NCBI GenBank assembly: GCA_017445365.1
Contig: JAFSUH010000175.1
Coordinates: 1 to 53,839 of the forward strand
Length of the DNA: 53,839 nt
Reading direction: 5' to 3'
Source of the DNA: Kiritimatiellia bacterium
GTDB lineage: Bacteria; Verrucomicrobiota; Kiritimatiellia; CAIQIC01; Lenti-01
Position numbers and translations under genes: made by a program. This document shows, in pieces, positions 6,259-31,966 of this stretch (positions are counted from its first letter, which is position 1; the number at the start of each line of letters is the position of its first letter). The notes under the pieces are model-generated. The model was not told the DNA's origin. It was given only the letters and a program-made list of their open reading frames with translations, and did no database searches.

Positions 6259-7518
6259 ATGATTCGGGAAAGCGTGATTGCCGCCGTGGCGGCCAAACAG
6301 AAAGAGCATGTTTTGGCCCGGGCCGGCGGTTTGCCCCGGCTGGAGAAGCTCCGCGCGGCCCCGGCGGGATTCGCGTGGATAATCAGCGGCGTCCGCCGGT
6401 GCGGGAAATCGACGCTGATGGAACAGTTCCTCCGGCAGGCGCCGGACGAAGCCTTCTATCTCAACCTGGAATCGACGGCGCTGGCCGGGCTTTCCCTGGA
6501 AGACGCCGGGCGGTTGGACCGGGCCATCGGGGCCACAGGCGCGAAGACGATCTATCTCGACGAGGTGCAGACGCTTGCCGGGTGGGAACGCTACGTGCGG
6601 ACGAAGCTCGACGAAGGCTTCCGCGTCGTCGCCACCGGCTCGAACGCGTCCCTGTTGGGGCGGGAGTTGGGAACGAAACTCACCGGACGGCACGTGGACA
6701 CGGAGCTTTTCCCCTTCGACTACGGCGAATTCCTTGCCTTCACGGAACGCACGCCCGGTGCGGATGCGACGCGCGCCTACCTTGCCGCGGGGGGATTCCC
6801 CTCCTATCTCGCCACGGACGACGAGCGGATTCTCGAGACGCTTTTCGCGGACATCCTGGAACGGGACGTGGCGCTCCGCCACGCCGTGCGGGATATCGCG
6901 GGATTGCGGCGCCTGGCGGCCTGGCTGGTCGAGAACGCCGGCGGAAAGATGTCGGCCCAGCGGCTTCGGCAACCGCTCGGCGTCGCTTCCGCCTCGACCC
7001 TCCTGCAATGGGCGGAGCATCTCGCCGATGCCTACCTCTTTTCATTCCTGCCGAAATTCAGCCCGTCGTTGCGGGTCCAGCTCGTCAATCCCCGCAAGAT
7101 CTACTGCATCGACACCGGATTGCAATGCGCCCTTTCCGCGACGAATGCGCCGGACGAATCCCGCTTGTTCGAGAATCTCGTCTTCCTGGCGCTCCGGCGC
7201 CGTTTCCGCGATCTGGCCTACTTCGAAGGAGACGGGCGGGAATGCGATTTCGTGGCGGTTGCGGGCAAGCGGCCGCTGGATCCCGTGCAGGCCACCGTCG
7301 CGCTGAACGAAGACTCCGAGGAGCGGGAAGTCACGGGAATGCGCGCGGCCATGGCGGCGCTGGGACGCCGCCGGGGTTGGATCGTGACCGTCGGCGAGGA
7401 GGACGTTCTCTCCGTGCCGGAAGGGGAAATCCGCATCGTTCCGTTCCATGCGTTCGATCCGGCCGCGATCGGCGAAGCGGCACCGGTCGCGAAACGGGAG
7501 AATGGGAGCGGAACGTGA
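6259..7518 (+). CDS. AAA ATPase, AAA_14 + DUF4143 type (paralog 1)
   Basis: Walker A GVRRCGKST, Walker B IYLDEVQ, ATGSNASLLGRELGTKLTGR. C-terminal ECDFV segment. AAAGGAG RBS. Confidence 0.85.
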   Translation: MIRESVIAAVAAKQKEHVLARAGGLPRLEKLRAAPAGFAWIISGVRRCGKSTLMEQFLRQAPDEAFYLNLESTALAGLSLEDAGRLDRAIGATGAKTIYLDEVQTLAGWERYVRTKLDEGFRVVATGSNASLLGRELGTKLTGRHVDTELFPFDYGEFLAFTERTPGADATRAYLAAGGFPSYLATDDERILETLFADILERDVALRHAVRDIAGLRRLAAWLVENAGGKMSAQRLRQPLGVASASTLLQWAEHLADAYLFSFLPKFSPSLRVQLVNPRKIYCIDTGLQCALSATNAPDESRLFENLVFLALRRRFRDLAYFEGDGRECDFVAVAGKRPLDPVQATVALNEDSEEREVTGMRAAMAALGRRRGWIVTVGEEDVLSVPEGEIRIVPFHAFDPAAIGEAAPVAKRENGSGT

Positions 7519-7847
7519 ACCGTACGCGCGAAACAAGGAAAACGGCGGGGGCCGTCCCCGTCCACCACCTGTGGCCGATCGGGTTGTCGCTTCTTTGGCT
7601 CCTTGGGGAAATCCGGTATCGTTGCCGTTCCGCGAAAGGATTTTACGGGCGGCCGACGCCATACATGGATTCGTTCTTCCTTCTCCTTGCCGACTTGGCG
7701 TTCCTTGTCCTTTCCATCGTCCCGTTCCGCCTGCATTGGCGCAAAACCAAACGGGTGCACTGGGGATTCCCGGTTTCCGCATGCCTTCTGGTTGCAGGCC
7801 TTCTCGTCGCCTGGCGGTTCCTGGCGGAAATCGGATTTGTGACCTGA
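7515..7847 (+). CDS. hypothetical small 3-TM membrane protein, possibly coupled to the ATPase
   Basis: GTG overlaps the ATPase stop (GTGA). Three hydrophobic stretches (LWPIGLSLLWLLG, FFLLLADLAFLVLSIVPF, VSACLLVAGLLVAW). An alternative ATG lies at 7664. Confidence 0.3.
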   Translation: MNRTRETRKTAGAVPVHHLWPIGLSLLWLLGEIRYRCRSAKGFYGRPTPYMDSFFLLLADLAFLVLSIVPFRLHWRKTKRVHWGFPVSACLLVAGLLVAWRFLAEIGFVT

Positions 7848-7862
7848 TCCGAAAAGCGCATT

Positions 7863-7923
7863 TGAAGGCGGAAGCGGGGACTCGCGCAGCGGCGTCCCCG
7901 CAAAGCACCGTGCCTCCGGCACC
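7863..7923 (-). repeat. REP-2 hairpin element (inverted orientation)
   Basis: gaaggcggaagcggggactcgcgcagcggcgtccccgcaaagcaccgtgcctccggcac. The stem is GCGGGGAC/GTCCCCGC instead of GCGGCGGC/GCCGCCGC. Confidence 0.75.
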
Positions 7924-8019
7924 CTTCGGAACCAAACCGCAGTGCATGGCGGAATGGTGAGAACTTTTCCGCCATTGAATGCGGTTTGGTTCTTGATGTC
8001 CCCGGTCCGGCGGAGTAGG

Positions 8020-9231
8020 ATGCCGGGCATGGAAATCCAACGCATCTACGACAAGATTGTCGCCTCGCACCTTGCCAAATACCGGCAGATGGCCTTTCTC
8101 TCCGGTCCGCGGCAGGTGGGAAAAACGACCGTGGCGAAACACTTCGCACCGCATTACTTCGACTGGGACAACGTGAATGCGCGCACCCGGATTCTCAAGG
8201 GCCCCGATGCCGTTGCGGAGGCGGCGCATCTGGACACCCTCCGGGAAGGGAAGACCGTCGTGGCTTTCGACGAAATCCACAAATACCCCCGGTGGAAGGA
8301 TTTCCTGAAAGGATTTTTCGACACCTACGAGGCGGATGCGCAAGTCGTCGCGACGGGGTCGGCGCGGATGGACGTTTTCGGCAAGGGCGGCGACAGCCTC
8401 ATGGGGCGCTATTTCCCGTACCGCGTGCACCCGCTCTCCGTGGCGGAACTGCTGGGCGGCGGCTTCCCCGGCGACAAGAGCCTCCTGCGGGAACCCGCGC
8501 CGCTTGACGAAACGGAATGGCGCGCGCTTCTCGTGCACGGGGGGTTCCCGGAGCCGTTCGTGCGCCGGGAAGCGGCGTTCACCCGGCGGTGGCGGGCGTT
8601 GCGGTCGGCGCAGTTGCTCAAGCGGGACGTCCGGGACCTGTCGAACATCCAGGAACTGGCGCAACTGGAAGTGCTCGCGCGGATTCTCGCGAAGCGGTCT
8701 TCGGATCAGGTGGCGTTTTCGTCGCTTGCTTCCGAAGTGCGGGTCGGGGAAAACACCGTGCGCGGCTGGATCGAGGTCCTCAAGTCCCTCTACTTCGGCT
8801 TCACCGTGCAACCCTATTTCGCGAACATCGAAAACGCCTTGCGCAAAACGCCGAAGTGGTACCTCCGGGACTGGTCGGGCATCGCGGACGAAGGCAAGCG
8901 GGCGGAAACGTTCGTCGCCTGCCATCTCCTGAAGGCCGTGGAAGGGTGGACGGACTTGGGGCTTGGCGAATTCGCCCTGTTCTATTTGCGGGACAAGAAG
9001 AAGCGGGAGGTCGATTTCCTCGTCACGCGGGATTCCTCGCCGTGGTTCCTGGTCGAAGTGAAGAAAGGCGATGCGCCCCTTTCGCCGGCCTTGGCGCATT
9101 TCCAGGAAGCCACGGGGGCCGGACACGCCTTCCAGGTGGTTCTCGACGCGCCATACGTGCAGGCCGATCCCTTCCAACGGACGAAGCCGACAATCGTCCC
9201 GGCGCGGACGTTCCTTTCGCTCCTCCTGTAA
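8020..9231 (+). CDS. AAA ATPase, AAA_14 + DUF4143 type (paralog 2)
   Basis: Walker A GPRQVGKTT, Walker B VAFDEIH, ATGSARMD...GDSLMGR. C-terminal REVDFLV...FLVEVKKGD is a PD-(D/E)xK-like pattern. The start could be 8029. Confidence 0.85.
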   Translation: MPGMEIQRIYDKIVASHLAKYRQMAFLSGPRQVGKTTVAKHFAPHYFDWDNVNARTRILKGPDAVAEAAHLDTLREGKTVVAFDEIHKYPRWKDFLKGFFDTYEADAQVVATGSARMDVFGKGGDSLMGRYFPYRVHPLSVAELLGGGFPGDKSLLREPAPLDETEWRALLVHGGFPEPFVRREAAFTRRWRALRSAQLLKRDVRDLSNIQELAQLEVLARILAKRSSDQVAFSSLASEVRVGENTVRGWIEVLKSLYFGFTVQPYFANIENALRKTPKWYLRDWSGIADEGKRAETFVACHLLKAVEGWTDLGLGEFALFYLRDKKKREVDFLVTRDSSPWFLVEVKKGDAPLSPALAHFQEATGAGHAFQVVLDAPYVQADPFQRTKPTIVPARTFLSLLL

Positions 9232-9436: not shown

Positions 9437-9500
9437 TTGAAGGCGGAAGCGGGGACTCGCGCAGCGGCGTCTGCCGCAAGGCAACGTGGCGAACGCCACG
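9437..9500 (-). repeat. REP-2 hairpin element (inverted orientation)
   Basis: gaaggcggaagcggggactcgcgcagcggcgtctgccgcaaggcaacgtggcgaacgccacgg. Confidence 0.7.
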
Positions 9501-9593
9501 GTTGACCGCGTTCCCCGCGGGCGCTAGAGTTCGCGTTCCCTTGCGGCCGGGTTCCCGCCCTGCCCCCCACCCCACCCCCCACGAAAGGTTTCC

Positions 9594-10265
9594 ATGAGTC
9601 CGTTCGACACCGCCTCCAAGGGCGCTCTCCTCTTCGATCTCGACAATCTCGTCGTTTCCGCCCGCCGTCTCTACTACGCCGCGCTCAAGGAAATCGTCTC
9701 CGCCCAGGGCAAGGAACTCTCCCCCGTCCTTTTCTCCCGTTTCTTTGTCACCGGCAACGGCGCCGACATCCCCGCGCTGTACGCCGCCCTCGGTCTCGCC
9801 CCCGATGCCGCCGACGGCATCGACGGGCAGATTTCCGAAACCGTCATCCCCCGCCTCGCCGCCTCCACCGCGAAGCCCGACCAGGCCCTCTCCGACTGGA
9901 TTGCCGCCGCCCAGGCCCGCGGCGCGACCGTCGTCGCCCTCACCCGCCTTTCCGCCGACGCCGCCGAGTCCCTGCTCGCGCGCATCGGCCTGAACCCCGA
10001 AGCCGTCCGCCCCTTCACCATGGACGAGCCCGGCGACCCGGCGGCCTGGGGCAAGGCCTGCGCGTCGTTCGCAAAGCTCCCGCGCCGTTGCGTGGCGGTG
10101 GTCACCTCCTCCGACGCGGCGAAAGCCGCGCTGGCGGCGCATCTGGGCGTGGTCGCGGTCCCCGACGAGTACACGGATTTCCAGGACTTCGGCGGCGCGG
10201 ACGCGGTGGTCGGGTCCCTCAAGGAACTCGACGCGAAAGAATACTTCGATGCCATCCGCCTCTAG
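9594..10265 (+). CDS. HAD-superfamily hydrolase-like protein
   Basis: N-terminal LLFDLDNL (DxD-type motif I), about 220 aa, phosphatase-like layout. Weak call. Confidence 0.5.
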   Translation: MSPFDTASKGALLFDLDNLVVSARRLYYAALKEIVSAQGKELSPVLFSRFFVTGNGADIPALYAALGLAPDAADGIDGQISETVIPRLAASTAKPDQALSDWIAAAQARGATVVALTRLSADAAESLLARIGLNPEAVRPFTMDEPGDPAAWGKACASFAKLPRRCVAVVTSSDAAKAALAAHLGVVAVPDEYTDFQDFGGADAVVGSLKELDAKEYFDAIRL

Positions 10266-11139
10266 GGCGAAGCCCGCGGCGCGCGCCGGGAAAAAGGCCG
10301 CCGGACCGGCCTCCCCGCGCGGCGCCCTGCGCGCGAAGGGTGCTGTTCCCGGCGGCGCCGCCGCCGCGAAGGAACTGCGCGCGCTCCTTGGTGTCATGGA
10401 TTGCCTGCGCGACCCGGAGCGCGGTTGCCCGTGGGACAGGGAGCAGACGCACGAATCCATCCGCGGAAGCCTCCTCGAAGAGGCGTACGAGGCCATCGAC
10501 GCGATCGACGAAAAGGACCCCGCCCACCTCAAGGAGGAATTGGGCGACGTGTTGTTGCAAACCGTCTTCCACGCCCAGCTCGCGCAGGAAGCGGGCGCCT
10601 TCGATTTCGCGGAAGTGCTGCACGCCCTCCGCGACAAGCTCCTCCGCCGCCACCCGCACGTGTTCGGTGAAGTCAAGGTCCGCGGGACGGACGACGTCCT
10701 GCGCAACTGGGAAACCATCAAGGCGGGCGAAAAGGGCGGCAAAGAAGTCCGCCGCATCCTCTCGGGCGTCCCGAAAAGCGCGCCGCCGCTGGCCCGCGCA
10801 CGGATGCTCCAGAAGCGCGCCGCGCGCGTCGGCTTCGACTGGCCGGACGCCGCCGGCGCCGTCGAAAAGATAGCCGAGGAAGCCGGCGAAGTCGCTTCGG
10901 CCTTGAAGAGCGGCCAAACCGCCGCCGTCGAGGAAGAGCTGGGGGACCTCCTCTTCAGCGTCGTCAACGTATGCCGCAAGGCCCACGTCGATCCTTCCCT
11001 CGCCCTGACCAAGGCCAACAAGAAATTCGAAAAGCGCTTCGGCAAGGTCGAAGACGCCCTCCGCGCTGCCGGCAAGACCTGGAAGGACGCCTCGCTCGAA
11101 GAAATGGACCGCGCCTGGAACGCGGCGAAGGGTCGTTAG
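10249..11139 (+). CDS. mazG: nucleoside triphosphate pyrophosphohydrolase MazG
   Basis: Two MazG repeats: CPWDREQTHESIRGSLLEEAYEAIDAI...EELGDVLLQ and VGFDWPD...EEAGEV...EELGDLLFSVVN. Confidence 0.88.
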   Translation: MPSASRAKPAARAGKKAAGPASPRGALRAKGAVPGGAAAAKELRALLGVMDCLRDPERGCPWDREQTHESIRGSLLEEAYEAIDAIDEKDPAHLKEELGDVLLQTVFHAQLAQEAGAFDFAEVLHALRDKLLRRHPHVFGEVKVRGTDDVLRNWETIKAGEKGGKEVRRILSGVPKSAPPLARARMLQKRAARVGFDWPDAAGAVEKIAEEAGEVASALKSGQTAAVEEELGDLLFSVVNVCRKAHVDPSLALTKANKKFEKRFGKVEDALRAAGKTWKDASLEEMDRAWNAAKGR

Positions 11140-11149
11140 GGGTCGCGGA

Positions 11150-11282
11150 CCCGTTGTTTTGCGGCGCTTCCACGGCGCAAGTCGCCGTGTAGCGCCCGCC
11201 TTCGCCTCCAAACGGGAAGCGTCCTTGGGGGTGCGGGGGAAAATCCCCGTCGGTTGTCGAATCCCGTTCGCTTTTGGCGGGA
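11150..11282 (+). repeat. R3 direct repeat, copy 1 (133 bp; REP-2 hairpin plus G5/C5 hairpin)
   Basis: About 95% identical to 11933-12066. Starts just after the mazG stop. Confidence 0.9.
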
Positions 11283-11315
11283 TGTTTGATGTTTTTCCGC
11301 ATTTCTTGATTTGTC

Positions 11316-11364
11316 TTGCAAGTGTATTGAGATTGCAACATATTGTTTCCTGAAAGCATTGCAA
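11316..11364 (+). promoter_or_regulatory. putative TA promoter/operator: three self-complementary TTGCAA hexamers
   Basis: TTGCAA at 11316, 11333 and 11359. TTGCAA-17 nt-CATATT (11339-11344) could serve as -35/-10. AAGGA RBS before the ATG at 11377. Confidence 0.3.
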
Positions 11365-11376
11365 AAGGAATGCGAC

Positions 11377-11634
11377 ATGAGCTCAACCACCCTCCAAATC
11401 CGGCTTGATGCCGACCTCCGGCACGAGGCCGATGAATTGTTTTCCGCAGCGGGTCTCGACCTGTCTTCGGCGGTACGCCTGTTCCTGCGGCAATCGGTCA
11501 TCCGCCGGCGTTTGCCTTTCGAGGTCATCGGGGCGGACCCGTTCCACTCCGAAGCCAACCAGCGCGCCCTCGCCGACTCCATCCGCTCCATCGAGCGCGG
11601 CGAAGCCCAAGCCCACGCCCTTGTCTCCCCCTGA
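11377..11634 (+). CDS. RelB/DinJ-family antitoxin (TA module 1)
   Basis: TTLQIRLDADLRHEADELFSAAGLDLSSAVRLFLRQSV is the RHH DinJ signature. Immediately upstream of a YoeB-like toxin. Confidence 0.8.
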   Translation: MSSTTLQIRLDADLRHEADELFSAAGLDLSSAVRLFLRQSVIRRRLPFEVIGADPFHSEANQRALADSIRSIERGEAQAHALVSP

Positions 11635-11638
11635 CGTC

Positions 11639-11905
11639 ATGGATGTCCTTTTTTCGCCCCGCGCCTGGGAGGAATACACCCAATGGCAGCAGGAGGACAA
11701 AAAGACGCTCAAACGCATAAACCTTCTCGTCAAGGACATCGAGCGAAACGGCCACGCCGGCTTGGGCAAACCCGAACCCCTGCGCGGGTGGGACGGCTAC
11801 TGGAGCCGCCGCATCGACGACGCCAACCGTCTCGTCTACAAACTGGAAGCCACAGGCCCGACCCGCCGTCTCCTCATCGCCCAGTGCAAAACTCACTACG
11901 AATGA
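11639..11905 (+). CDS. yoeB: Txe/YoeB-family mRNA interferase toxin (TA module 1)
   Basis: FSPRAWEEYTQWQQEDKKTLKRINLLVKDIERNGHAGLGKPEPLRG...WSRRIDDANRLVY...CKTHY matches YoeB hallmarks. Confidence 0.85.
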   Translation: MDVLFSPRAWEEYTQWQQEDKKTLKRINLLVKDIERNGHAGLGKPEPLRGWDGYWSRRIDDANRLVYKLEATGPTRRLLIAQCKTHYE

Positions 11906-11932
11906 CCGCCCCGACGAAGGGGGGCCGTTAGG

Positions 11933-12066
11933 CCCGTTGTTTTGCGGCGCTTCCACGGCGCAAGGCGCCGTGTAGCGCCCGCCTTCGCCTCCAAACGGGA
12001 CGCGTCCTTGGGGGTGCGGGGGAAAATCCCTCGCCGGTTGTCGAATCCCGCTCGCTTTTGGCGGGA
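11933..12066 (+). repeat. R3 direct repeat, copy 2
   Basis: See copy 1. Preceded by aaggggggccgttagg, which resembles the mazG 3-prime end aagggtcgttagg. Confidence 0.9.
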
Positions 12067-12183
12067 GGCATTCCCGCCCGCGCCAGCGGCGCCGTTCCTT
12101 CCCGCTTGCCTCCTCGCCCATCCGGCAAAACTTTCCGCGCGTTTTCCGGCGATTGGAAAACGGTTGGAGGAGCGAAAGGTACT

Positions 12184-12552
12184 TTATGGGGGCTGGCTCC
12201 TCGATTTCTCGTCGCTATCCGGGTTGTCCCCGCCCATTCGTGAAAAACCCCCACCTTCGGAGAATGCCTGTTCCAAATTGGCAACAAGTGTCTCCAATCC
12301 ACTCCGTGACTGGACATCCACCTTCCATTCGTTATCAAAATACACAACCACCTTTGACAATTCATCAAGTCGACCCTGTTTGGCAAGGGTGGACAACAAC
12401 GTGGAATAATGCTCGAAACTTCTTATGTAAGTTCCCAGACAGAGCAATCGTTCAAATGCCCGCCCATAATGACATGCTCCCATCATGGACAAAATCCACA
12501 AAAGCAAAATCAATGAAATGGATGGAACAAGATTGCGTTTTGAGGATTTCAT
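12184..12552 (-). CDS. hypothetical small protein with N-terminal TM/signal anchor (lower-GC patch)
   Basis: In-frame ATG of ORF 12184..13008. MKSSKRNLVPSISLILLLWILSMMGAC... then a soluble domain. AAAGG upstream. Local GC is visibly lower. Confidence 0.45.
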   Translation of the reverse strand: MKSSKRNLVPSISLILLLWILSMMGACHYGRAFERLLCLGTYIRSFEHYSTLLSTLAKQGRLDELSKVVVYFDNEWKVDVQSRSGLETLVANLEQAFSEGGGFSRMGGDNPDSDEKSRSQPP

Positions 12553-12776
12553 GGAATGCCTTTTGGTTTCGGGTGTCCGTGTTGCAAGGGAACGCCTGGC
12601 AGAAGGAGCGGCGCGGGGCAAAGGAGGAATGTCGATGGCGAATTTCCGTCGCGAAAACATTGCCATCCGTCGTCTCCCGCGCTGGCGGCGCCGTTCCCTC
12701 TTGCCCCCTCCCCCATCCCTTGCTTTGCCGGCAAAATGCCGACTCCCAATGATTCTTGGCGGGCGGCGGGGGTCTT

Positions 12777-13100
12777 TCAGCAACTGGCGGTGACGGAGCC
12801 CCAGAGGAGGAAGAGGGCGGCGAGCCACCAGAGCGCCACGGCGGCGGCGGCCAGCAAGGCCGGGCGGAGACCGGGACGCCAGAACTGACGGGCGAACAGG
12901 TACAGCAAGCCTGCCGCCAAGGCCAGCCAGAGCCAGGGATTGATTCCCAAGTAGCCAAGGAGGCGCCGCGGCCACACCGCGCATTCGAGGAATGCGCGCC
13001 AATCCCACTCGCCCAGCATCGATTTCAGTTCAAGCGAGAAGATCGTGGTGCCGAACAGGCACACCACGGCATCCAGCAGCAGTGTCTTTTTCCAGTTCAT
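12777..13100 (-). CDS. hypothetical small multi-TM membrane protein
   Basis: In-frame ATG (MNWKKTLLLDAVVCLFGTTIF...) with GGAG 8 nt upstream. Three or four hydrophobic helices. Confidence 0.45.
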   Translation of the reverse strand: MNWKKTLLLDAVVCLFGTTIFSLELKSMLGEWDWRAFLECAVWPRRLLGYLGINPWLWLALAAGLLYLFARQFWRPGLRPALLAAAAVALWWLAALFLLWGSVTASC

Positions 13101-13183
13101 GGGGGGACTCCGGGGCGGACGGGAAGGCGGCACGGAAGGCGCCCGGGAAGATGTGGATGGGGAAAGGAAATGTGTGCCGTTGT

Positions 13184-13672
13184 TCATGGTGTGTCCCTTT
13201 TTCTTCCCTTTTCTTCCAGCTCTTCTTTGCAGGCACGAAGCCCCTTTCCGATTTCTTTTTCAAACCCGGACAACAGTCGGGTGGCCTTGAGAAAGATGGC
13301 CTCGGCTTCCCGTGCATTGTCTTCCACGTTCAAAACGTAATATCCCAATTCAATCCATGCATCCAGACATTGGCCGTCCAGATCCAATGCGTGTTGGAAC
13401 GATTTTTTGGCCTCATCCAACGGCAACTCCGTGCTGTCGGCCATCTGAAGGCACATACCCCGCAAAACCCACAATCTTGGCGACAACATGCCATGTCCCG
13501 ACTCTTCGATTCGGCGCAAGGCCTCGTCGAACCGTCGTGCGTGCATCAGGGATTCTATCGTGTCCGGAAATTTGGAATCAGGCCCCTTTCCCGGCTTCCT
13601 CCGTGCTGCGTCCAAATCTTCTCCGCGCTCTTTGCGTCCCTGCGTGGGATTTCTTTGTTTTGCGGTGTTCAT
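13184..13672 (-). CDS. hypothetical protein with TPR-like helical repeats
   Basis: 162-aa ORF. Basic N-terminus, then FDEALRRIEES...AKKSFQHALDLDGQCLDAWIELGYYVLNVEDNAREAEAIFLKA. Confidence 0.5.
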   Translation of the reverse strand: MNTAKQRNPTQGRKERGEDLDAARRKPGKGPDSKFPDTIESLMHARRFDEALRRIEESGHGMLSPRLWVLRGMCLQMADSTELPLDEAKKSFQHALDLDGQCLDAWIELGYYVLNVEDNAREAEAIFLKATRLLSGFEKEIGKGLRACKEELEEKGRKRDTP

Positions 13673-13674
13673 GC

Positions 13675-13863
13675 GGAAGCCTTTGGTTCGCGGGGTTCGG
13701 GTTGCAAGGACGTCTAGCAGAAGGAGCGGCGCGGGGCAAAAGGAAACGCGCGGCGCGCCTTTGGCGCGGTTGAAAAGTTGAAAGGTTGAAAAGTTGAAGA
13801 ATGGCCTTCAACAGATTTCCTCAAGCTTTCACCCTTTCAACTCTTCACCCTTCAACCCTTCAG
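13675..13863 (+). repeat. R4 direct repeat, copy 1 (189 bp) including GTTGAARR octamer tandem repeats and their inverted partners
   Basis: ggaagcctttggtt.gcggggttcgggttgcaaggacgtctagcagaaggagcggcgcggggcaaaaggaaacgcgcggcgcgcc...cttcaac... Near-identical to 16434-16608. Partial relatives at about 12565-12630 and 14540-14600. Confidence 0.9.
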
Positions 13864-13939
13864 AGCGGTGCGCCCGCGGAGCGGGCGGTATGTGGATGGA
13901 AAGGGATGGATAAGGTGAAAACAATAACGTATTGTTTGC

Positions 13940-13968
13940 TTGACAATGAAATGCAAATGTTTTCTATT
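13940..13968 (+). promoter_or_regulatory. putative promoter of TA module 2
   Basis: TTGACA (13940-13945), 17-nt spacer, tctatt. Palindrome aacaat-N5-attgtt just upstream (about 13921-13937). Confidence 0.3.
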
Positions 13969-13999
13969 CGGCAAGGGTTGACAGACGAAAGGTTTTCCA

Positions 14000-14269
14000 A
14001 TGGCACAGGTCAGTTTCAGGATGGATGATGATTTGAAGATGGTTGCGGATGATACGTTCCGCTCGATGGGCATGACGATGTCGACGGCCATCAACATTTT
14101 CGTGGCGCAGACGGTGCGGCTCGGGCAATTCCCATTTGCCATCAAGGCCGATCCGTTCTATTCGGAAGCCAACATGGCCGAGTTGCGCCGCCGTGCCGCG
14201 GACGTGGAGGCGGGGCGGCATCTCGTCGAACACGAGTTGGCGGAGGCGGGGGAAGCCACCCATGCGTAA
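14000..14269 (+). CDS. RelB/DinJ-family antitoxin (TA module 2)
   Basis: MAQVSFRMDDDLKMVADDTFRSMGMTMSTAINIFVAQTV plus the same DPF(Y/H)SEAN C-terminal segment as module 1. Confidence 0.8.
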   Translation: MAQVSFRMDDDLKMVADDTFRSMGMTMSTAINIFVAQTVRLGQFPFAIKADPFYSEANMAELRRRAADVEAGRHLVEHELAEAGEATHA

Positions 14270-14519
14270 GGTCTGGCACGAGGAGGCCTGGGAGGAATAT
14301 CTCGCCTGGCAGGGCACGGACAGGAAGACGCTCAAGCGCATCAACCAACTCCTCCAGAGCATCGACCGCAACGGCTATGCTTGTCTCGGCAAGCCGGAAC
14401 CGTTGAAGCACGACTTGGCCGGCTGGTGGAGCGTCCGCATCAACGACGCCGACCGCTTGGTATTCCGCATCGCGGGCGACCGCCTCGAAATCCTTTCCTG
14501 CAAAGGCCACTACTCTTGA
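14262..14519 (+). CDS. yoeB: Txe/YoeB-family toxin (TA module 2)
   Basis: In-frame ATG of ORF 14136..14519 overlapping the antitoxin end by 8 nt. WHEEAWEEYLAWQGTDRKTLKRINQLLQSIDRNGYACLGKPEPLKHDLAGWWSVRIN..DRLVF...CKGHY. Confidence 0.85.
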   Translation: MRKVWHEEAWEEYLAWQGTDRKTLKRINQLLQSIDRNGYACLGKPEPLKHDLAGWWSVRINDADRLVFRIAGDRLEILSCKGHYS

Positions 14520-14684
14520 GCTATGCGCCTGGGGCGCGAGCGAAAAGGGAACAGGGAAAAGTGAAAAGTTTGCGGTGCGCCCGCGGAGCGGGCGGGGGTG
14601 GACGGGATTTTCGATGATTGAAAAAAAATTCCGCGCGTTTTCCGGCGATTTGAGGGACGGTTGGAGAAGCGAAACGCATCTGCA

Positions 14685-15131
14685 TCACGGACGCTTGGAA
14701 TAAAACACGAATCCGTTGCCGCGCTTCACTTCCGCATAACCCAGCTTCGGGTACAAGGAATTCGTCCTGATGTTCCAGCAGGGAGTATCAAGCGTGAACT
14801 CTTTTGCCCCGGGGAACATCTTCTCGATTTCCCGCATCATGAAGATGCCGTATCCTTTCCGGAAATGCTCCGGAGCGACAAAGATCCTTCCGACATTCAA
14901 CTCGTCTCCGTTCGGAAAAAGGAGTGCTCCGCCGACAATGAGACCATCTTCCGCAAGCTTGTACAGATGACCCTGTTCCGCCATCTCGGCATGGAACTGC
15001 ACGGACATGTATCCGGGCGGTCCGCAGGGAGCCGGTGCCCCGACCGAAACATCGCTGTCGAATGCCCGCTTCGAGATCCCGTTTATGGTCGGGGCATCGG
15101 ATGTGCTTGCTTTCAAAAGTTGAAGACTCAT
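14685..15131 (-). CDS. GNAT-family N-acetyltransferase
   Basis: 148 aa. IFVAPEHFRKGYGIFMMREIEKMF fits the acetyl-CoA binding motif A region. Confidence 0.8.
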   Translation of the reverse strand: MSLQLLKASTSDAPTINGISKRAFDSDVSVGAPAPCGPPGYMSVQFHAEMAEQGHLYKLAEDGLIVGGALLFPNGDELNVGRIFVAPEHFRKGYGIFMMREIEKMFPGAKEFTLDTPCWNIRTNSLYPKLGYAEVKRGNGFVFYSKRP

Positions 15132-15214
15132 TCTTTTCTCCTGGATGAACCTGATTGCTTGAACAATGCATGAGGCTGGTTCACGGATGCCGCCGCCCGG
15201 GGCGCTGGGCGGGC

Positions 15215-16344
15215 CTATTTCAGGGAGATGCCGCGTTCTTCGAACCAGCGGGCGAGGGCTTCGGCCGATTCCGCGGTGAAGGGATAGTCGTCGGAGAAGG
15301 TGTTCCAGCGGAGCGCTTGGCCATGTTGCATGGACGTGAGGGCGAGCCGTTCACCGCCCTTCCACCAGTCGATGCCCGGATGGCCGCAGCACATGCGGAT
15401 GAGAACCCTCCGCTGGGACTGTCCTCGAATTGGATCATCGCCGTGAAGGTGGCAACTTCGGCAGCGTTGGTAAGGACGACGAGGGTGCGCTGGCGGTCGA
15501 TGTCCTCTTCGGGCACGCAGCAGTCGAAGCCGCCGTCCCGGACCACGATGCGGTCGGCTTCGGAAACCGTCTTGAAGAAATACGCCTTCTCCGCACGGGC
15601 GAGATCCCAGAGGGATACCCGGAAGGGCGCATTGGTTCCGACGACGAATACCATGTTCGTTTCGGCGTCCGCGGCGAGGTTGGAGAGGGAGTCGGGATCG
15701 ATGCCCGCCGCGCGGCAGTAGTTGAGGGCGAATGACGGCCAGAGCGGCGGGAAGGGGCGTTTCTCCGAAGGTTCCCGCGAGAGTTCGTCCACCTTGCCGG
15801 AGGAATCGACCCGAAAGACGACCGTCTCGGTCCATTCCTTCTCTTCTTCGTCCGATTCGGCGTCACGGAACGGATTCTTGATCATCCCATGGATGGATTC
15901 GCAGGTGAACAACCAAGCCGTGCCGCCGTCGGCGTCGGCGACGGTCTGGATGGCGTAGGGGAACAACAGTTCGTCATTCTTCCGGTAGTTCAGGCATCGT
16001 TCGGCCTCTGCAAAGTTGCGGGGCGGCGGCATGAAGCGATACCCGTAGCCATTCTCGACATGGTAGAGCCCCGTCAGGGCGTCGAGTTCCGAAAGCAGCT
16101 CTTCGAGCGAGATGCCGTCGGCGCGGAGCGTGATGGCGGGAAGCTCGTTGGGGGCGGAGCGGTCGAGCCGGACGATGAACGGGAAGGGCTCCTCCGGATT
16201 CATCGCAGTTATCTTTGACCCGATGTCGGCGAGCACCTCCGTGAACGCGACGTTCCCGTAGTCGACGGAGAGCTTCGTCCCGGAGAATTCATCCGCAAAC
16301 GCGGGAAGCGAGAGGAGCAGGAGGAGGAGCAGTAGGCGTTTCAT
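15215..16344 (-). pseudogene. secreted hypothetical protein with an apparent frameshift near 15405-15430
   Basis: Signal peptide MKRLLLLLLLLSLPAFA at 16344. The protein-like reading runs to ...TFTAMIQFEDS in the frame of ORF 15220..16413. The protein-like sequence then continues in the frame of ORF 15215..15835 (RVLIRMCCGHPGIDWWKGGERLALTSMQHGQALRWNTFSDDYPFTAESAEALARWFEERGISLK). Confidence 0.5.
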
Positions 16345-16433
16345 GGTTGTTGTCCTTTCTTGTGTTCTGCGTTCCTTTCTTGATTTTCCGCAACATGAAG
16401 TCGCTTTCCTCAACCACCATCATGATGTTCACG

Positions 16434-16608
16434 GGAAGCCTTTGGTTAGCGGGGTTCGGGTTGCAAGGACGTCTAGCAGAAGGAGCGGCGCGGGGCAAAA
16501 GGAAACGCGCGGCGCGCCTTCGGCGCGAGGGAAAAGTTGAAGAATGACCCTTCAACAGATTCCCGCAACCTTTCACCCTTTCAACTCTTCACCTTTTCAA
16601 CCTTTCAG
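16434..16608 (+). repeat. R4 direct repeat, copy 2 (175 bp)
   Basis: Same orientation as copy 1. Has a shorter GTTGAA left arm. Confidence 0.9.
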
Positions 16609-16668
16609 GGCGGCATCCTGCCGCGTTTCCACGCAAGGGTGGTGCAAGGGGGAGCCGGAGGGGGGCGG

Positions 16669-16911
16669 TCACGGTTTGTTTCCCGCCAGAAAAGCGGAGG
16701 CAATCTCCCAAAGGGTCAGGATGGTTCCGACCGAACCGAGGAAGGCGAAAAACAGCCCCAGCAGCTCCGGGTCCTCCACCCACCGTTCCGGCGCCTTCCA
16801 CCAGACGGGCTCCTTGGGTTTGTCCTTCCGCATCTTCGCCTCCCGCAGCAGATGCACCCCCGCGCACAGGCAAACGAGAGCCCCAACCAGCTTTGCCAGC
16901 ATCAGCACCAT
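16669..16911 (-). CDS. hypothetical small 2-TM membrane protein
   Basis: 80-aa ORF starting 3 nt after the dehydrogenase stop. LAKLVGALVCLCAGVHLL and LLGLFFAFLGSVGTILTLW. Confidence 0.45.
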   Translation of the reverse strand: MVLMLAKLVGALVCLCAGVHLLREAKMRKDKPKEPVWWKAPERWVEDPELLGLFFAFLGSVGTILTLWEIASAFLAGNKP

Positions 16912-28506: not shown

Positions 28507-29802
28507 ATGACTGATTTCCGTCAAGACCCCCGCTTTGCCGATCTCGCGCCTTTCCCGTCAAAACTTTGGCTGTCTTCCCCCACCATGCACGGGAAAGAAT
28601 TGCACTGGGTGGAAGAGGCCATCCGCACCAACTGGGTCACCACGCTCGGCGAAAACATCAACGAAGTCGAACGCGCCACCGCCTCCCTCGTCGGGCGCAA
28701 GTGTGCCGTCGGCCTTTCCGCCGGGACCGCCGCCCTCCACCTCGCCGTCAAACTCTGCGGCGAAGCCCTCTACGGCCAGCCCCGCGCCGGACACGGCACC
28801 CTCGAAGGCCATCGCGCCTTCTGCTCCGACCTCACGTTCGACGCAACCGTCAATCCTGTCTCCTACGAAGGGGGCGAAGCCGTCTTCGTCGATACTGAAC
28901 GCGACACCTGGAACATGGATCCTGCCGCCCTCGAAAAAGCTTTCGACCTTTATCCGGACGTGCGTCTCGTCGTTCTCGCCCATCTCTACGGAACGCCTGC
29001 CAGAATTGGCGAAATCCGCGCCATTTGCGACGCCCATCGCGCCTTGATCGTCGAAGACGCCGCCGAATCCTTCCTCGCTACCCACCAGGGCCGCCAGACC
29101 GGTACTTTCGGCGATGTCTCGATTTTTTCCTTCAATGGCAACAAGCTCGTCACCGGCAGTTCGGGCGGGATGCTCCTGACCGACAACCCCGAATGGGCGG
29201 ATAAAACCCGCAAGTGGTCCACCCAGTCGCGCGAAGCCGCCCCGTGGTATCAGCACGAGGAGCTCGGCTACAACTACCGGATGAGCAACATCGTCGCCGG
29301 CGTCGTCCGCGGGCAGCTTCCATACGCAGCCGAACACCGCGACCAAAAGAAGGCCATCTACGAGCGCTACAAGGCAGGCCTTGCCGACCTTCCCGTCTCT
29401 TTGAACCCGTTCCTCCCCGACGACGAGCCGAATTTCTGGCTCTCCTGCCTTTTGGTCGACACCGACGCGATGGCACCGCAAGTCCGCGGCGAACGCGACG
29501 CGCTCTACCGCCACGAGCCGGGCAAGTCATCGCCGACGGAAATCTTGGAAGCGCTCGCGGCTTTCAACGCCGAGGGCCGCCCCCTCTGGAAGCCGATGCA
29601 CCTGCAGCCGATCTACCGCATGAACCCGTTCGTGACGACAGCGGGCAGCGGCCGCGCCCGTTCCAACGCCTACATCTCCGGCGGCGCACCCGACGTCGGC
29701 GCCGACCTCTTCGCCCGCGGCCTGTGCCTGCCCTCCGACAACAAGATGACGCCCGATCAACAGGCCCTCATCATCGACATTGTCCACCGTTGTTTCCGAT
29801 GA
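28507..29802 (+). CDS. DegT/DnrJ/EryC1/StrS-family PLP aminotransferase (EpsN/PglE-like sugar aminotransferase)
   Basis: 431 aa. Contains FSFNGNKLVTGSSGGMLL (PLP-lysine region) and the N-terminal WVTTLGENINEVE pattern. Confidence 0.88.
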   Translation: MTDFRQDPRFADLAPFPSKLWLSSPTMHGKELHWVEEAIRTNWVTTLGENINEVERATASLVGRKCAVGLSAGTAALHLAVKLCGEALYGQPRAGHGTLEGHRAFCSDLTFDATVNPVSYEGGEAVFVDTERDTWNMDPAALEKAFDLYPDVRLVVLAHLYGTPARIGEIRAICDAHRALIVEDAAESFLATHQGRQTGTFGDVSIFSFNGNKLVTGSSGGMLLTDNPEWADKTRKWSTQSREAAPWYQHEELGYNYRMSNIVAGVVRGQLPYAAEHRDQKKAIYERYKAGLADLPVSLNPFLPDDEPNFWLSCLLVDTDAMAPQVRGERDALYRHEPGKSSPTEILEALAAFNAEGRPLWKPMHLQPIYRMNPFVTTAGSGRARSNAYISGGAPDVGADLFARGLCLPSDNKMTPDQQALIIDIVHRCFR

Positions 29803-30137
29803 CCCCGCCCCCGGCAAAACCATGCACCCCCGGCACCCCGGACGGCGAAGGCGTCCTCTCCTCAAAACGACAATGTCCCGATAAAAATCGAATCGTTGAT
29901 ATGTTGCGCCAACAACCCGGCCTCAACCGCAAACAACTGGCAGACATACTCTCGGTGGAGATCAAGACCGTTACCCGGGCTTTGGCGGAACTCACCCACA
30001 TGGTCGAACACCGTGGCAGAAGAAAACCTGCGGCTACCATCTCGTCTCTCCGCCCCACGAGTCTCCGTCCGCGTCGGATCCGACCGTGCCGGCCATTGGA
30101 AAGTCCTCGTTCCGCCGTTGCATGGGAACGGAAATAG
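29799..30137 (+). CDS. winged-helix (wHTH) protein, probably disrupted at its 3-prime end
   Basis: The ATG overlaps the aminotransferase stop (ATGA). HTH segment IVDMLRQQPGLNRKQLADILSVEIKTVTRALAEL. The conserved C-terminal VRVGSDRAGHWKVLVP is present but in another frame (ORF 29896..30144). Confidence 0.35.
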   Translation: MTPPPAKPCTPGTPDGEGVLSSKRQCPDKNRIVDMLRQQPGLNRKQLADILSVEIKTVTRALAELTHMVEHRGRRKPAATISSLRPTSLRPRRIRPCRPLESPRSAVAWERK

Positions 30138-30170
30138 TGTGTAATGTTCCCTCATCGCCAAGGAGTGAAC

Positions 30171-30461
30171 ATGCCGACCATTGAATCTATAGTGAAACCA
30201 CGCGGGAGCCGTATCAGCGTGGCCGTCCCGAAGGAGTACGCCTCGTATTCCTTCCAAGTCATACTTGTCCCCATCCGCCCCGAAGAACCTTCCGGGGCGA
30301 AACCCGCCCCGCGTTCCGCCCGGCAAATGCAATCCCTCGCCGATGCCCTTCTGTCCCTCCCCTCTCCGGGCGATGACTGGTCCCCCGACGCCTCCCGTGC
30401 CGACGACCCTCCATCGTTCTTCGAGCGCTCCGGCGGATTCTGTTCGGAGGCATTCGCTTGA
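30171..30461 (+). CDS. putative antitoxin of the VapC toxin
   Basis: AGGAG RBS 5 nt upstream. 96 aa. The stop overlaps the TTG start of the PIN gene. Family not recognised. Confidence 0.5.
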   Translation: MPTIESIVKPRGSRISVAVPKEYASYSFQVILVPIRPEEPSGAKPAPRSARQMQSLADALLSLPSPGDDWSPDASRADDPPSFFERSGGFCSEAFA

Positions 30462-30880
30462 AATACCTCATCGATACCTGTGTCGCTTCGGAATCCGCAA
30501 AACGCACGCCTTCCGGGGCCGTGACGCAATGGTTCGCCTCCGTCCCGGCTGCAGACGTATTCATTCCTTCCGTCGCCCTCGGCGAACTGTACAAGGGCAT
30601 CTCCCGGCTTGCGCCGGACGATCCCAGGCGTCCCCGGCTCGTTGACTGGCTGGAGAACCTCCGGAATGTATTCGCAGGCAGGATTGTCGCCTTCGACGAA
30701 CGTGCCGCCGTGACGTGGGGCCGCCTTTGCGGCGAAGCCGAACGCGCAGGACGCAAACGCCCATCCATCGACGCCCAGATCGCGGCCATCGCGCTGGCCA
30801 ACGGCATGACCCTCGTCACGCGCAACGTCGATGACATGGCGGGATTCGACGCCCCCATCTTCAACCCTTTCCCGCCCTGA
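30458..30880 (+). CDS. vapC: PIN-domain ribonuclease toxin VapC
   Basis: KYLIDTCV (first acidic residue), SIDAQIAAIALANGMTLVTRNVDDM (conserved D and TRN.D tail). Confidence 0.8.
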   Translation: MKYLIDTCVASESAKRTPSGAVTQWFASVPAADVFIPSVALGELYKGISRLAPDDPRRPRLVDWLENLRNVFAGRIVAFDERAAVTWGRLCGEAERAGRKRPSIDAQIAAIALANGMTLVTRNVDDMAGFDAPIFNPFPP

Positions 30881-30888
30881 CCGAAAGG

Positions 30889-31080
30889 TTGCCAGAAACA
30901 GCGGTCGCCATTCTTTCGGCCATGAACAAAACCCCAGCCATTACCATCGCCGAATTTTCCACAGCCTTGGACATCTCCTCCAGCGCCGTCGAAAAACACA
31001 TCTCCCGCTTCCGTTCGCGCGGCCTTCCCGTCCGCGTCGGCTCCGACCGTGCCGGCCATTGGAAAGTCCTCGTTCCATGA
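30889..31080 (+). CDS. small wHTH protein (intact copy)
   Basis: ITIAEFSTALDISSSAVEKHISRFRSRGLPVRVGSDRAGHWKVLVP. TTG start at 30889, or ATG at 30922. Confidence 0.45.
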   Translation: MPETAVAILSAMNKTPAITIAEFSTALDISSSAVEKHISRFRSRGLPVRVGSDRAGHWKVLVP

Positions 31081-31158
31081 GTTGCTTCTCCTTTTGTGAT
31101 TCTGGCTCTGCAAGGCATTTGCCGCGTTTGGACACTTGTCGAGCCAACGGGAATTTCA

Positions 31159-31247
31159 CCCGCGGGCTGTGCCTGCCTTCCGACAACAAGATGACGCCCT
31201 TCCAGCAAGATTTAGTCATCGACATCATCCACCGTTGCTTCCTATGA
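31159..31247 (+). pseudogene. duplicated, diverged 3-prime end of the aminotransferase gene
   Basis: Encodes RGLCLPSDNKMTPFQQDLVIDIIHRCFL*, versus RGLCLPSDNKMTPDQQALIIDIVHRCFR* for the true gene end (29713-29802). Confidence 0.7.
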
Positions 31248-31966
31248 CCATGGCTTCATCTCTTCCTGTCAACTCCGCCCCTCTCCGCATTCTCGTCGTC
31301 GCCGCCCATCCCGACGATGAGGTTCTCGGCATGGGGGGAACCATTGCCAAACTTGCAGCCAACGGGGCCGAAATCAAACTTCTCATTGTCACCGACGGAT
31401 CATCTTCCCAATACCGAGGCAATCCCGACCTTCCGGCCATCATCGAGGCGAAAAAAGAGGAAACGGCCCGTTGCGCCGCCATTCTCGGCATCCGGGAAAT
31501 TCTCCATGGGGGTCTCCCCGACATGCGTCTTGACATCACACCCCATGTCCAAATCAACCAGATTATCGAGTCGGCCGTCGAGTCGTTCCGCCCTTCCGTC
31601 GTTTTTACCCACTTTTCCGGCGACATCAACGCCGACCACCAGCGCGTCAGCCACTCCACGCTTGTCGCGTGCCGCCCAACCGCATCCCAATGCGTGAAAC
31701 GGCTCTATTTCTATTCCGTCCCTTCATCTACCGAATGGAACGCCCCCGCCGCAACCAACGCTTTTCTTCCCAACGTCTTTTTTGACATTTCCGGCCCCTG
31801 CGCCGACCTCAAGTACCGGGCCTTTGCCTGTTACGGAACCGAGCTCCGTCCCTATCCCCACCCGCGCAGCGTCCAATATCTCCAAAATGCCGACGCCGCC
31901 GTCGGCAACCGCGTCGGTCTCCCGTCCGCGGAAGCTTTCATGCTTGTCCGGTCCGTCAACCCATGA
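31244..31966 (+). CDS. PIG-L/LmbE-family N-deacetylase
   Basis: ILVVAAHPDDEVLGMGGTIAKL motif. The ATG overlaps the remnant stop (ATGA). Confidence 0.85.
   Translation: MTMASSLPVNSAPLRILVVAAHPDDEVLGMGGTIAKLAANGAEIKLLIVTDGSSSQYRGNPDLPAIIEAKKEETARCAAILGIREILHGGLPDMRLDITPHVQINQIIESAVESFRPSVVFTHFSGDINADHQRVSHSTLVACRPTASQCVKRLYFYSVPSSTEWNAPAATNAFLPNVFFDISGPCADLKYRAFACYGTELRPYPHPRSVQYLQNADAAVGNRVGLPSAEAFMLVRSVNP

Follow-up and report, generated by a model that had tools for sequence, protein, structure and literature searches.

A relB/dinJ-yoeB toxin-antitoxin operon between long direct repeats downstream of mazG in a Kiritimatiellia genome: probable insertion with target duplication

Introduction

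Insertion with long target duplication has been described for restriction-modification (RM) units (Nobusato et al. 2000, Gene 259:99; Furuta, Abe and Kobayashi 2010, PMC2853133; also PMC3874152). In the survey of Furuta et al. (PMC2853133) such events were recognised by an insert smaller than 20 kb, the absence of mobility genes, a duplication longer than 30 bp and an empty site in a relative. The repeats often span a stop codon, keeping the neighbouring gene intact, and DNA breaks made by the RM enzymes were put forward there as a possible driver of insertion.

Long direct repeats have also been reported around toxin-antitoxin (TA) genes. A ParE/ParD-like module of Microcystis aeruginosa PCC 7806 lies between identical 152-bp direct repeats (Klemencic et al. 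2021, PMC7935541), and TA cassettes between direct attC repeats are classic in the superintegrons of Vibrio (PMC2654758). Homology-facilitated illegitimate recombination, as defined in PMC3240628, is a further route by which DNA can be acquired. Chromosomal TA operons evidently pass from genome to genome, but the insertion of one that lacks a mobility gene has rarely been documented at base-pair resolution.

Here we describe a TA locus directly downstream of mazG in an uncultured Kiritimatiellia bacterium (GenBank assembly GCA_017445365.1, contig JAFSUH010000175.1). The whole stretch of DNA analysed, 53,839 nucleotides, is referred to as the window. The locus offers both filled and empty alleles, and its cargo has exact limits and recurs in other contexts. 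We consider it probable, at roughly two chances in three, that the TA operon was inserted just downstream of mazG with duplication of a target of ~155 bp and without an element-encoded enzyme.

Results

The locus is ordered mazG, first repeat copy (c1), TA genes, second repeat copy (c2) and spacer, and mazG is intact. The repeat is termed R3. The features are as follows.

10249..11139, + strand: mazG (nucleoside triphosphate pyrophosphohydrolase); PF03819, E 1.3e-40; its last 14 nt lie inside c1
11126..11282, + strand: c1, delimited by the repeat coordinates and a five-way alignment with the empty-site alleles; it comprises the mazG end with the stop codon, a small hairpin (11140-11152), a REP-like hairpin (~11150-11212) and locus-specific hairpins (11218-11282)
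11283..11376, + strand: AT-rich TA upstream region, presumed promoter/operator, with repeated TTGCAA motifs and a GC of 0.49-0.52
11377..11634, + strand: relB/dinJ-family antitoxin, 85 aa; PF04221, E 5e-6
11639..11905, + strand: yoeB-family toxin, 88 aa; PF06769, E 5e-28, and matches to PDB YoeB chains
11915..12066, + strand: c2, a 17-nt mazG 3' remnant (11915-11931) followed by the hairpin series of c1
12067..12183, no strand: spacer, aligning with relatives L040, L062 and L063 directly after their single R3; it ends in the conserved block GCGATTGGAAAACGGTTGGAGGAGCGAAAGG, which adjoins the first of the minus-strand cassette genes at its stop codon

Downstream of mazG and of the TA operon alike lies the same hairpin block.

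The cargo between the two copies spans 632 bp (11283-11914) and holds only the AT-rich upstream region, relB/dinJ and yoeB. Antitoxin precedes YoeB-fold toxin in one operon, the two genes being 4 nt apart behind one common upstream region. Pfam matches to PF04221 and PF06769 both lie above their cut-offs, and the toxin aligns to PDB YoeB chains with E values of 1e-22 to 1e-19, including the GKPEPL and WSRRI motifs. Homology thus assigns the cargo to the type II RelB/DinJ-YoeB toxin-antitoxin systems. The region 11283-11376 is presumably its promoter; no match to the sigma-70 consensus was found there.

The TA unit also occurs elsewhere. RelB has 274 homologues, many at 85 to 95% identity and several labelled Kiritimatiellae by their sources, unlike MazG, which has almost no close relatives, with homologue identity dropping from 97 to 87 and then to 58%. 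At the nucleotide level, the unit is present in contigs L043-L052 (92% over window positions 11309-11912) and in L053 (88% over 11297-11922), and its neighbouring genes differ among the window, L043-L052 and L053. In these other contexts its limits match the cargo limits 11283-11914 to within about 10-25 nt, and the upstream region is kept with the unit from about 11297-11309 onward. No flanking direct repeats longer than expected by chance were found around it in L043, L044, L047 or L053. The 632-bp relB/dinJ-yoeB unit is thus a discrete entity, horizontally mobile among Kiritimatiellia, with at least two contexts besides the present one.

The original prediction, made from the DNA letters of the window, held that two R3 copies about 95% identical and in the same orientation enclose only the TA genes and their upstream region, and that the duplication reaches into the 3' end of the upstream gene. 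Both statements were borne out. Comparison of 11150-11282 with 11933-12066 by blastn gave 96.3% identity over 134 nt, the copies being direct repeats. A repeat search of the window resolved them into two blocks offset by a 1-nt indel: 11150-11247 against 11933-12030 (98% over 98 nt) and 11235-11282 against 12019-12066 (88% over 48 nt). A 35-mer of R3 occurs exactly twice in the window and was matched in none of 100 shuffles. The repeat pair is real and far from chance.

On the left, the similarity extends into mazG. The sequence CGAAGGGGGGCCGTTAGG (11915-11932) is the counterpart of the mazG end CGAAGGG---TCGTTAG (11126-11139), and it is even closer to the mazG end of relatives L040 and L063, AAGGGGAGCCGTTAGG; the 17-nt remnant (11915-11931) agrees with these at 16 of 17 positions. 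Since the mazG end is echoed before c2, the duplicated segment comprises approximately 11126-11282 and 11915-12066 (157 and 152 nt), and the stop codon and last 14-17 nt of mazG fall inside it. The identical mazG-c1-TA-c2 structure is found in independent assemblies from other samples (L039, L056 and L058-L060), which rules out an assembly artefact; the occupied contigs represent one strain throughout. L057, considered as a 98% variant, was rejected as such, being the same strain with an N gap.

R3 is rich in secondary structure, folding as single-stranded DNA or RNA into a series of hairpins (z about -3), and the duplicated segment is bounded at both sides by the feet of hairpins. No known RNA family was found anywhere in the window using Rfam. 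The first 61 nt of R3 are a member of a dispersed hairpin family (consensus GTTGCTTTGCGG-hairpin-CCGCTTCCGCCTCCAA) with 44 nhmmer matches in the 2.3-Mb assembly, the match within c1 being 11151-11212. Across 25 copies, compensatory changes occur at 4 of 10 consensus stem pairs. With many dispersed copies and a conserved hairpin, this first part of R3 has the properties of REP/BIME-like intergenic repeats.

Such a family might suggest that c1 and c2 are two independent dispersed copies that happen to flank the TA pair. Membership of the first 61 nt in the family, with its compensated hairpin, is what that proposal would draw on. However, no other family member exceeds about 84% identity with R3, across some 60 nt (blastn), against 96% over 134 nt between c1 and c2, and the repeat also holds mazG coding bases and a second half of ~65 nt that is absent elsewhere in the genome. 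This second half is kept at the same place in the empty alleles of related strains, and those empty sites hold exactly one R3 copy, contradicting chance adjacency. We regard that explanation as very improbable. Because full-length R3 is present in only two copies in the genome (blastn) and its second half is specific to the locus, R3 would be a local mazG-proximal sequence that happens to hold a REP-like element, and not a mobile repeat that landed twice.

Empty sites were found among the useful relatives, which are the members of the 90% protein cluster of the best MazG match. MazG orthologues are present in 57 of 61 related genomes, but those of the family, order and class are ~50% identical and too distant for an empty-site comparison. 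Three alleles on four contigs (L040, L062 and L063/L064), with mazG at 95-96% nucleotide identity to the window, carry mazG, one R3 and the c2-type spacer, without the TA pair. This is the arrangement that had been foreseen from the window. By blastn, the single R3 of these alleles joins c1 on its left and c2 plus spacer on its right. In L040, positions 64-1868 correspond to window 9499-11282 and positions 1780-2027 to window 11981-12228, so that L040 lacks exactly the cargo and one repeat copy. Neither of the two outcomes named in advance as contrary to the prediction was encountered, no relative having an R3 pair without cargo or the TA pair here unaccompanied by repeats.

The three empty alleles are closer to each other than to the window and thus form a sister clade to its strain. 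More distant relatives, L061, L065, L066 and L041 (92, 89, 87 and 84% mazG identity, respectively), have a different mazG end and lack both R3 and TA; the 2-hydroxyacid dehydrogenase gene of L066 is an almost immediate neighbour of mazG. In a five-way alignment, c1 and c2 have common derived states that are absent from all empty alleles, and the two are more alike than either is to the empty-site alleles. Given the outgroups without R3 and TA and the derived states of c1 and c2, parsimony favours a gain with target duplication on the branch of the window, an argument that spans one occupied strain and one empty sister clade. For the cassette-like gain and loss originally envisaged, the same comparisons support the gain with target duplication, and do not amount to a demonstrated reversible system.

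The edges of the repeats are less simple. The c1 copy has the short mazG end of L062, whereas c2 has the long end of L040 and L063. These mismatched left edges are not what a simple, recent local duplication would predict; c1 would have been mutated later or exchanged with other strains, or one of the copies would be derived from a donor. Additionally, the R3 of L062 looks recombinant, with a window-like hairpin and a second half like that of its clade. A sliding-window comparison across mazG revealed no clear recombination breakpoint. Among the relatives, intermediate alleles were likewise absent, there being neither a tandem R3-R3 without cargo nor a mazG-R3-TA without c2.

These edges bear on the possibility that the arrangement is ancestral, with R3-TA-R3 predating the split, the sister clade having lost the TA genes by recombination between c1 and c2, and gene conversion maintaining the identity of the copies. 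Sharing of the long mazG end by c2, L040 and L063 and of the short end by c1 and L062 is in keeping with this, as is the recombinant look of the L062 R3. Furthermore, c1 and c2 agree best centrally (98%) and less well towards the edges (88%), as gene conversion can bring about. Conversely, the outgroups at 84-92% mazG identity have neither TA nor R3 after mazG, and the hairpin variant of L040 and L063 is entirely different from that of c1 and c2. From the established properties of type II TA systems in general, loss of the YoeB module should also be selected against. We judge an ancestral origin unlikely.

No integrase or transposase Pfam domain was detected in the cargo or its neighbouring genes, in agreement with the absence of a recombinase noted originally, and a genome search returned no integrase-like match on the contig of the window. 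Two Y1_Tnp matches above cut-off, both with HUH-like motifs, lie on contigs C42 and C110, and repeat-specific enzymes of this HUH Y1-transposase-like kind may play a role. Xer-like recombinases are encoded on other contigs; the genome is about 66% complete, and a trans-acting recombinase could sit in the missing part.

It could accordingly be imagined that mazG has at its 3' end, within R3, an attachment site used in trans by a tyrosine or serine recombinase encoded elsewhere. The TA genes and one R3 would then form a non-autonomous, CIME-like element (cis-mobilizable, without its own integrase), with c1 and c2 as attL and attR. Integrative elements typically have direct repeats through which the target gene regains its 3' end, an element-derived arm would be expected to give left edges of unlike allele type, and the Xer-like recombinases and incomplete genome leave a source for the enzyme. 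However, there is no integrase in or near the insert, near-identity over 155 bp is long for an att core, and the genome holds no further R3 copy. Elsewhere the TA unit is found without R3, a mazG piece or flanking repeats, indicating that it has no dedicated attachment sequence. Site-specific integration in trans is on this evidence an improbable origin, somewhat more so than an ancestral arrangement.

The locus opens an island. From mazG to the 2-hydroxyacid dehydrogenase gene (11.1-16.9 kb), the GC content is lower and the gene content is different in every related strain. The stretch measures 5.5 kb in the window, 3.7 kb with other genes in L062, ~1 kb in L061 and ~0.3 kb in L066. Its minus-strand genes are exchanged between strains, between conserved 5' and 3' blocks.

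Such hypervariability might point to a cluster of integron cassettes without an integrase, R3 being attC. The family is integron-bearing: 13 of its 36 genomes have an integron integrase above the curated cut-off, and the Vibrio precedent supplies TA cassettes between direct attC repeats. The attC sites of the family are, however, about 57 nt long (AACGTYAGCGTTC...GCAACGCCTTGTT). A covariance model of them finds 21, 40 and 10 sites (71) in three relatives outside the model and none in the present genome, the best match in the window scoring 12 bits and lying outside the locus. The best IntI match (TIGR02249) reaches 92 bits against a cut-off of 265 in this ~66% complete genome. R3 starts inside a housekeeping gene, and the junctions between minus-strand cassettes, taken as single-stranded DNA, fold no better than shuffled sequence (z 0.07, -1.2 and -1.7). 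With no attC by the family covariance model and no IntI above cut-off, the integron cassette explanation was rejected as the least credible of those considered, and the term cassette-like does not hold in the integron sense.

The window contains two further TA loci, for which the same architecture had been proposed. They are indeed bracketed by repeats, but the repeats are of other kinds and empty sites did not emerge. YoeB module 2 is flanked by a direct repeat of 24 nt without mismatches; the match offered by L062 is no more than approximate, and no empty site was found for this module. At the PIN module, a 49-nt pair (98%) is nested within a 95-nt pair (82%), and the cargo also holds small wHTH ORFs. 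Here the outer pair consists of the 3' end of the upstream DegT gene and a remnant before the PIG-L gene, so that a PIN-domain (VapC-like) toxin and a candidate antitoxin lie behind a duplicated 3' end of the upstream gene, as at mazG. In one metagenome scan with DegT, no match exceeded 84% at the amino acid level and DegT-PIG-L synteny was absent, so that no empty site emerged for the PIN module.

Discussion

Insertion with long target duplication is the closest known kind of event to the locus described here, which by its sequence appears to belong with it, the cargo alone differing in kind. Four of the five features that Furuta et al. rely on are found: a complete addiction unit, an insert of 632 bp without a mobility gene, a duplication of 134 nt that extends to 152-157 nt with the mazG end, and an empty site whose single copy aligns with both repeats and both flanks. 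On the fifth, whether the repeat is something other than a dispersed element, the observations point both ways: full-length R3 occurs only twice and its second half is specific to the locus, but its first 61 nt belong to the 44-match family.

The likeness to the RM examples extends to several particulars. In both, the insert is a compact addiction module without a mobility gene, a related strain has an empty site with a single repeat, the two copies are closer to one another than to that site, and the repeat spans the stop codon of a neighbour that remains intact. Repeats of 46-423 bp there and of about 155 bp here are both far beyond the duplications made by transposons. The differences are that the cargo here is a type II TA pair, whose toxin family cleaves mRNA and not DNA; that the duplicated target includes a dispersed REP-like hairpin; and that the host belongs to an uncultured Kiritimatiellia lineage.

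Two described TA arrangements are also similar. In M. aeruginosa, as far as the account available to us describes it, the TA genes likewise lie directly 3' of a host gene between same-orientation direct repeats of ~150 bp that hold inverted repeats. There, however, the two repeats are fully identical and begin 14 bp beyond the stop codon, the TA family is another one, and that part of the account gives neither an empty site nor a duplicated upstream gene end. The superintegron cassettes of Vibrio resemble the present unit in being whole TA operons with their own promoter between direct repeats of ~120 bp, in varying in presence between strains and in lying in a region rich in small strain-specific genes. 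Here, in contrast, attC is absent in both structure and sequence, and no integron integrase was found in the ~66% complete genome; the repeat has only two copies and includes the end of a housekeeping gene.

The preferred reading, insertion of the operon with target duplication, would proceed as follows. A horizontally mobile 632-bp relB/dinJ-yoeB unit enters the lineage of the window directly 3' of mazG. Its insertion would duplicate ~155 bp, comprising the last 14-17 nt of mazG with the stop codon, the REP-like hairpin and ~65 nt of locus-specific hairpins. We infer that host recombination or replication functions, and not an element-encoded enzyme, would form the structure. One candidate is that a small circle with one repeat copy integrated by a single crossover (Campbell-type); another is template switching at the hairpins. 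A third is homology-facilitated illegitimate recombination, combining one-sided homologous and illegitimate joining from a sibling donor. This process can insert foreign DNA without an element enzyme, using one homologous anchor (here mazG and R3) and one illegitimate join; a piece of the resident mazG end would then persist 3' of the insert. It needs a mazG-R3-TA donor, and no such allele was found.

Once in place, the module could presumably be deleted by RecA-type recombination between the 96%-identical copies, so that one R3 would remain. Cells losing the module would pay a cost, the YoeB toxin being stable.

A broader proposal is that long target duplication represents a general, host-driven entry of any addiction module at gene ends rich in hairpins, whether or not the cargo cleaves DNA. 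It is suggested by the mRNA-interferase TA cargo in place of an RM unit, by the hairpin feet at both edges of the duplication and by the PIN module behind a duplicated gene end in the same window. We hold this generalisation to be doubtful. If it is true, the mechanism long looked for would probably lie in fork stalling with template switching at REP-like hairpins or, alternatively, in cleavage at hairpin feet by the HUH transposase-like proteins of the genome.

The locus would extend long target duplication, so far systematically documented for RM units, to a TA pair in a little-studied phylum. As the toxin is not known to cut DNA, the view that DNA breaks made by the cargo cause such insertions would be weakened, and the implication, a modestly new one, is that a DNA-cutting cargo may not be required. 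For annotation, a repeat-flanked island of small genes in an integron-bearing family need not be an integron array.

Strain-variable regions on both sides of mazG

Comparison of the window with related contigs L040, L061, L062, L063 and L066 revealed that the interval from mazG to the 2-hydroxyacid dehydrogenase gene (window 11140-16910) is a strain-level hypervariable island of 0.3-5.5 kb. Within it, minus-strand ORFs are swapped between strains nearly exactly from start codon to stop codon. Conserved blocks bracket them, one on the 5' side (GGTGTCCGTGTTGCAAGG...GGCAGAAGGAGCGGCGCGGGGCAAAGG) and one on the 3' side (GCGATTGGAAAACGGTTGGAGGAGCGAAAGG). These blocks also follow the TA unit (the relB/dinJ-yoeB operon) in three other Kiritimatiellia contigs (L043, L044 and L047), where the next genes are three different ones.

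In the window, two AAA_14/DUF4143 ATPase genes and a YkuD-domain gene (6259-9231) precede the HAD-like gene and mazG. The 84-92% relatives L041, L061 and L065 lack all three genes, and in them the aminotransferase gene, a 51-aa ORF, the HAD-like gene and mazG follow one another without a break. The three-gene block is another strain-specific insertion.

Other small cargos between direct repeats

The PIN-domain toxin of the window and its upstream 96-aa ORF are enclosed by two small wHTH ORFs, the 3' ends of which form a 49-nt direct repeat (98%).

Features of the PIN module (window coordinates)
29710-31249, PIN-module region
29710-29804, intact DegT aminotransferase end, left of the insert
30458-30880, PIN-domain toxin
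31155-31249, DegT-end remnant, right of the insert and immediately before the PIG-L gene; 82% identical to the intact end

The module represents a second case of insertion behind the duplicated end of a gene, here that of DegT; a metagenome scan with DegT found no empty site for it.

Self-comparison of the genome revealed more close direct-repeat pairs around small cargos.

Repeat pairs elsewhere in the genome
Contig C38, 9825-11872, 128-nt repeats (87%) flanking 1.8 kb of DNA (48% GC) that codes for an AAA-type ATPase and for a partner ORF
Contig C71, 3594-5681, 123-nt repeats (93%) enclosing a region with a small gene pair that may resemble DUF4160/DUF2442

Integrons in the family

Integron integrases scoring above the TIGR02249 cut-off were present in 13 of the 36 genomes from the same Kiritimatiellia family (G002, G004, G009, G013, G016, G017, G021, G024-G026, G028, G031 and G035); the comparison also covered L069:9691-16738. 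The arrays of integrase-bearing members contain canonical 57-nt attC sites (AACGTYAGCGTTC...GCAACGCCTTGTT), as many as 40 of them in one genome.

The REP-like element and its candidate mobilisers

In the downstream repeat copy c2 (11922-11935) and in all empty-site alleles (L040, L062 and L063), a small hairpin (GGRSC-RTTA-GRSYC) carries the mazG stop codon in its loop; with this hairpin the REP-like element begins at its 5' end. The upstream copy c1 has an insertion of 9 nt (GGTCGCGGA) that gives rise to a separate hairpin 3' of the stop codon (11140-11152), matching the TCGCGGACCC prefix seen in many copies of the REP-like family.

Two open frames of the genome scored above the cut-off for Pfam Y1_Tnp, the IS200/RAYT-type HUH transposase family.

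Y1_Tnp open frames
Contig C42, 7547-8632
Contig C110, 9050-10045

Both possess HUH-like motifs (SNHVHVL, DNHFHLL) together with a conserved YIHLNP motif, and their products are candidate mobilisers of the REP-like hairpin family.
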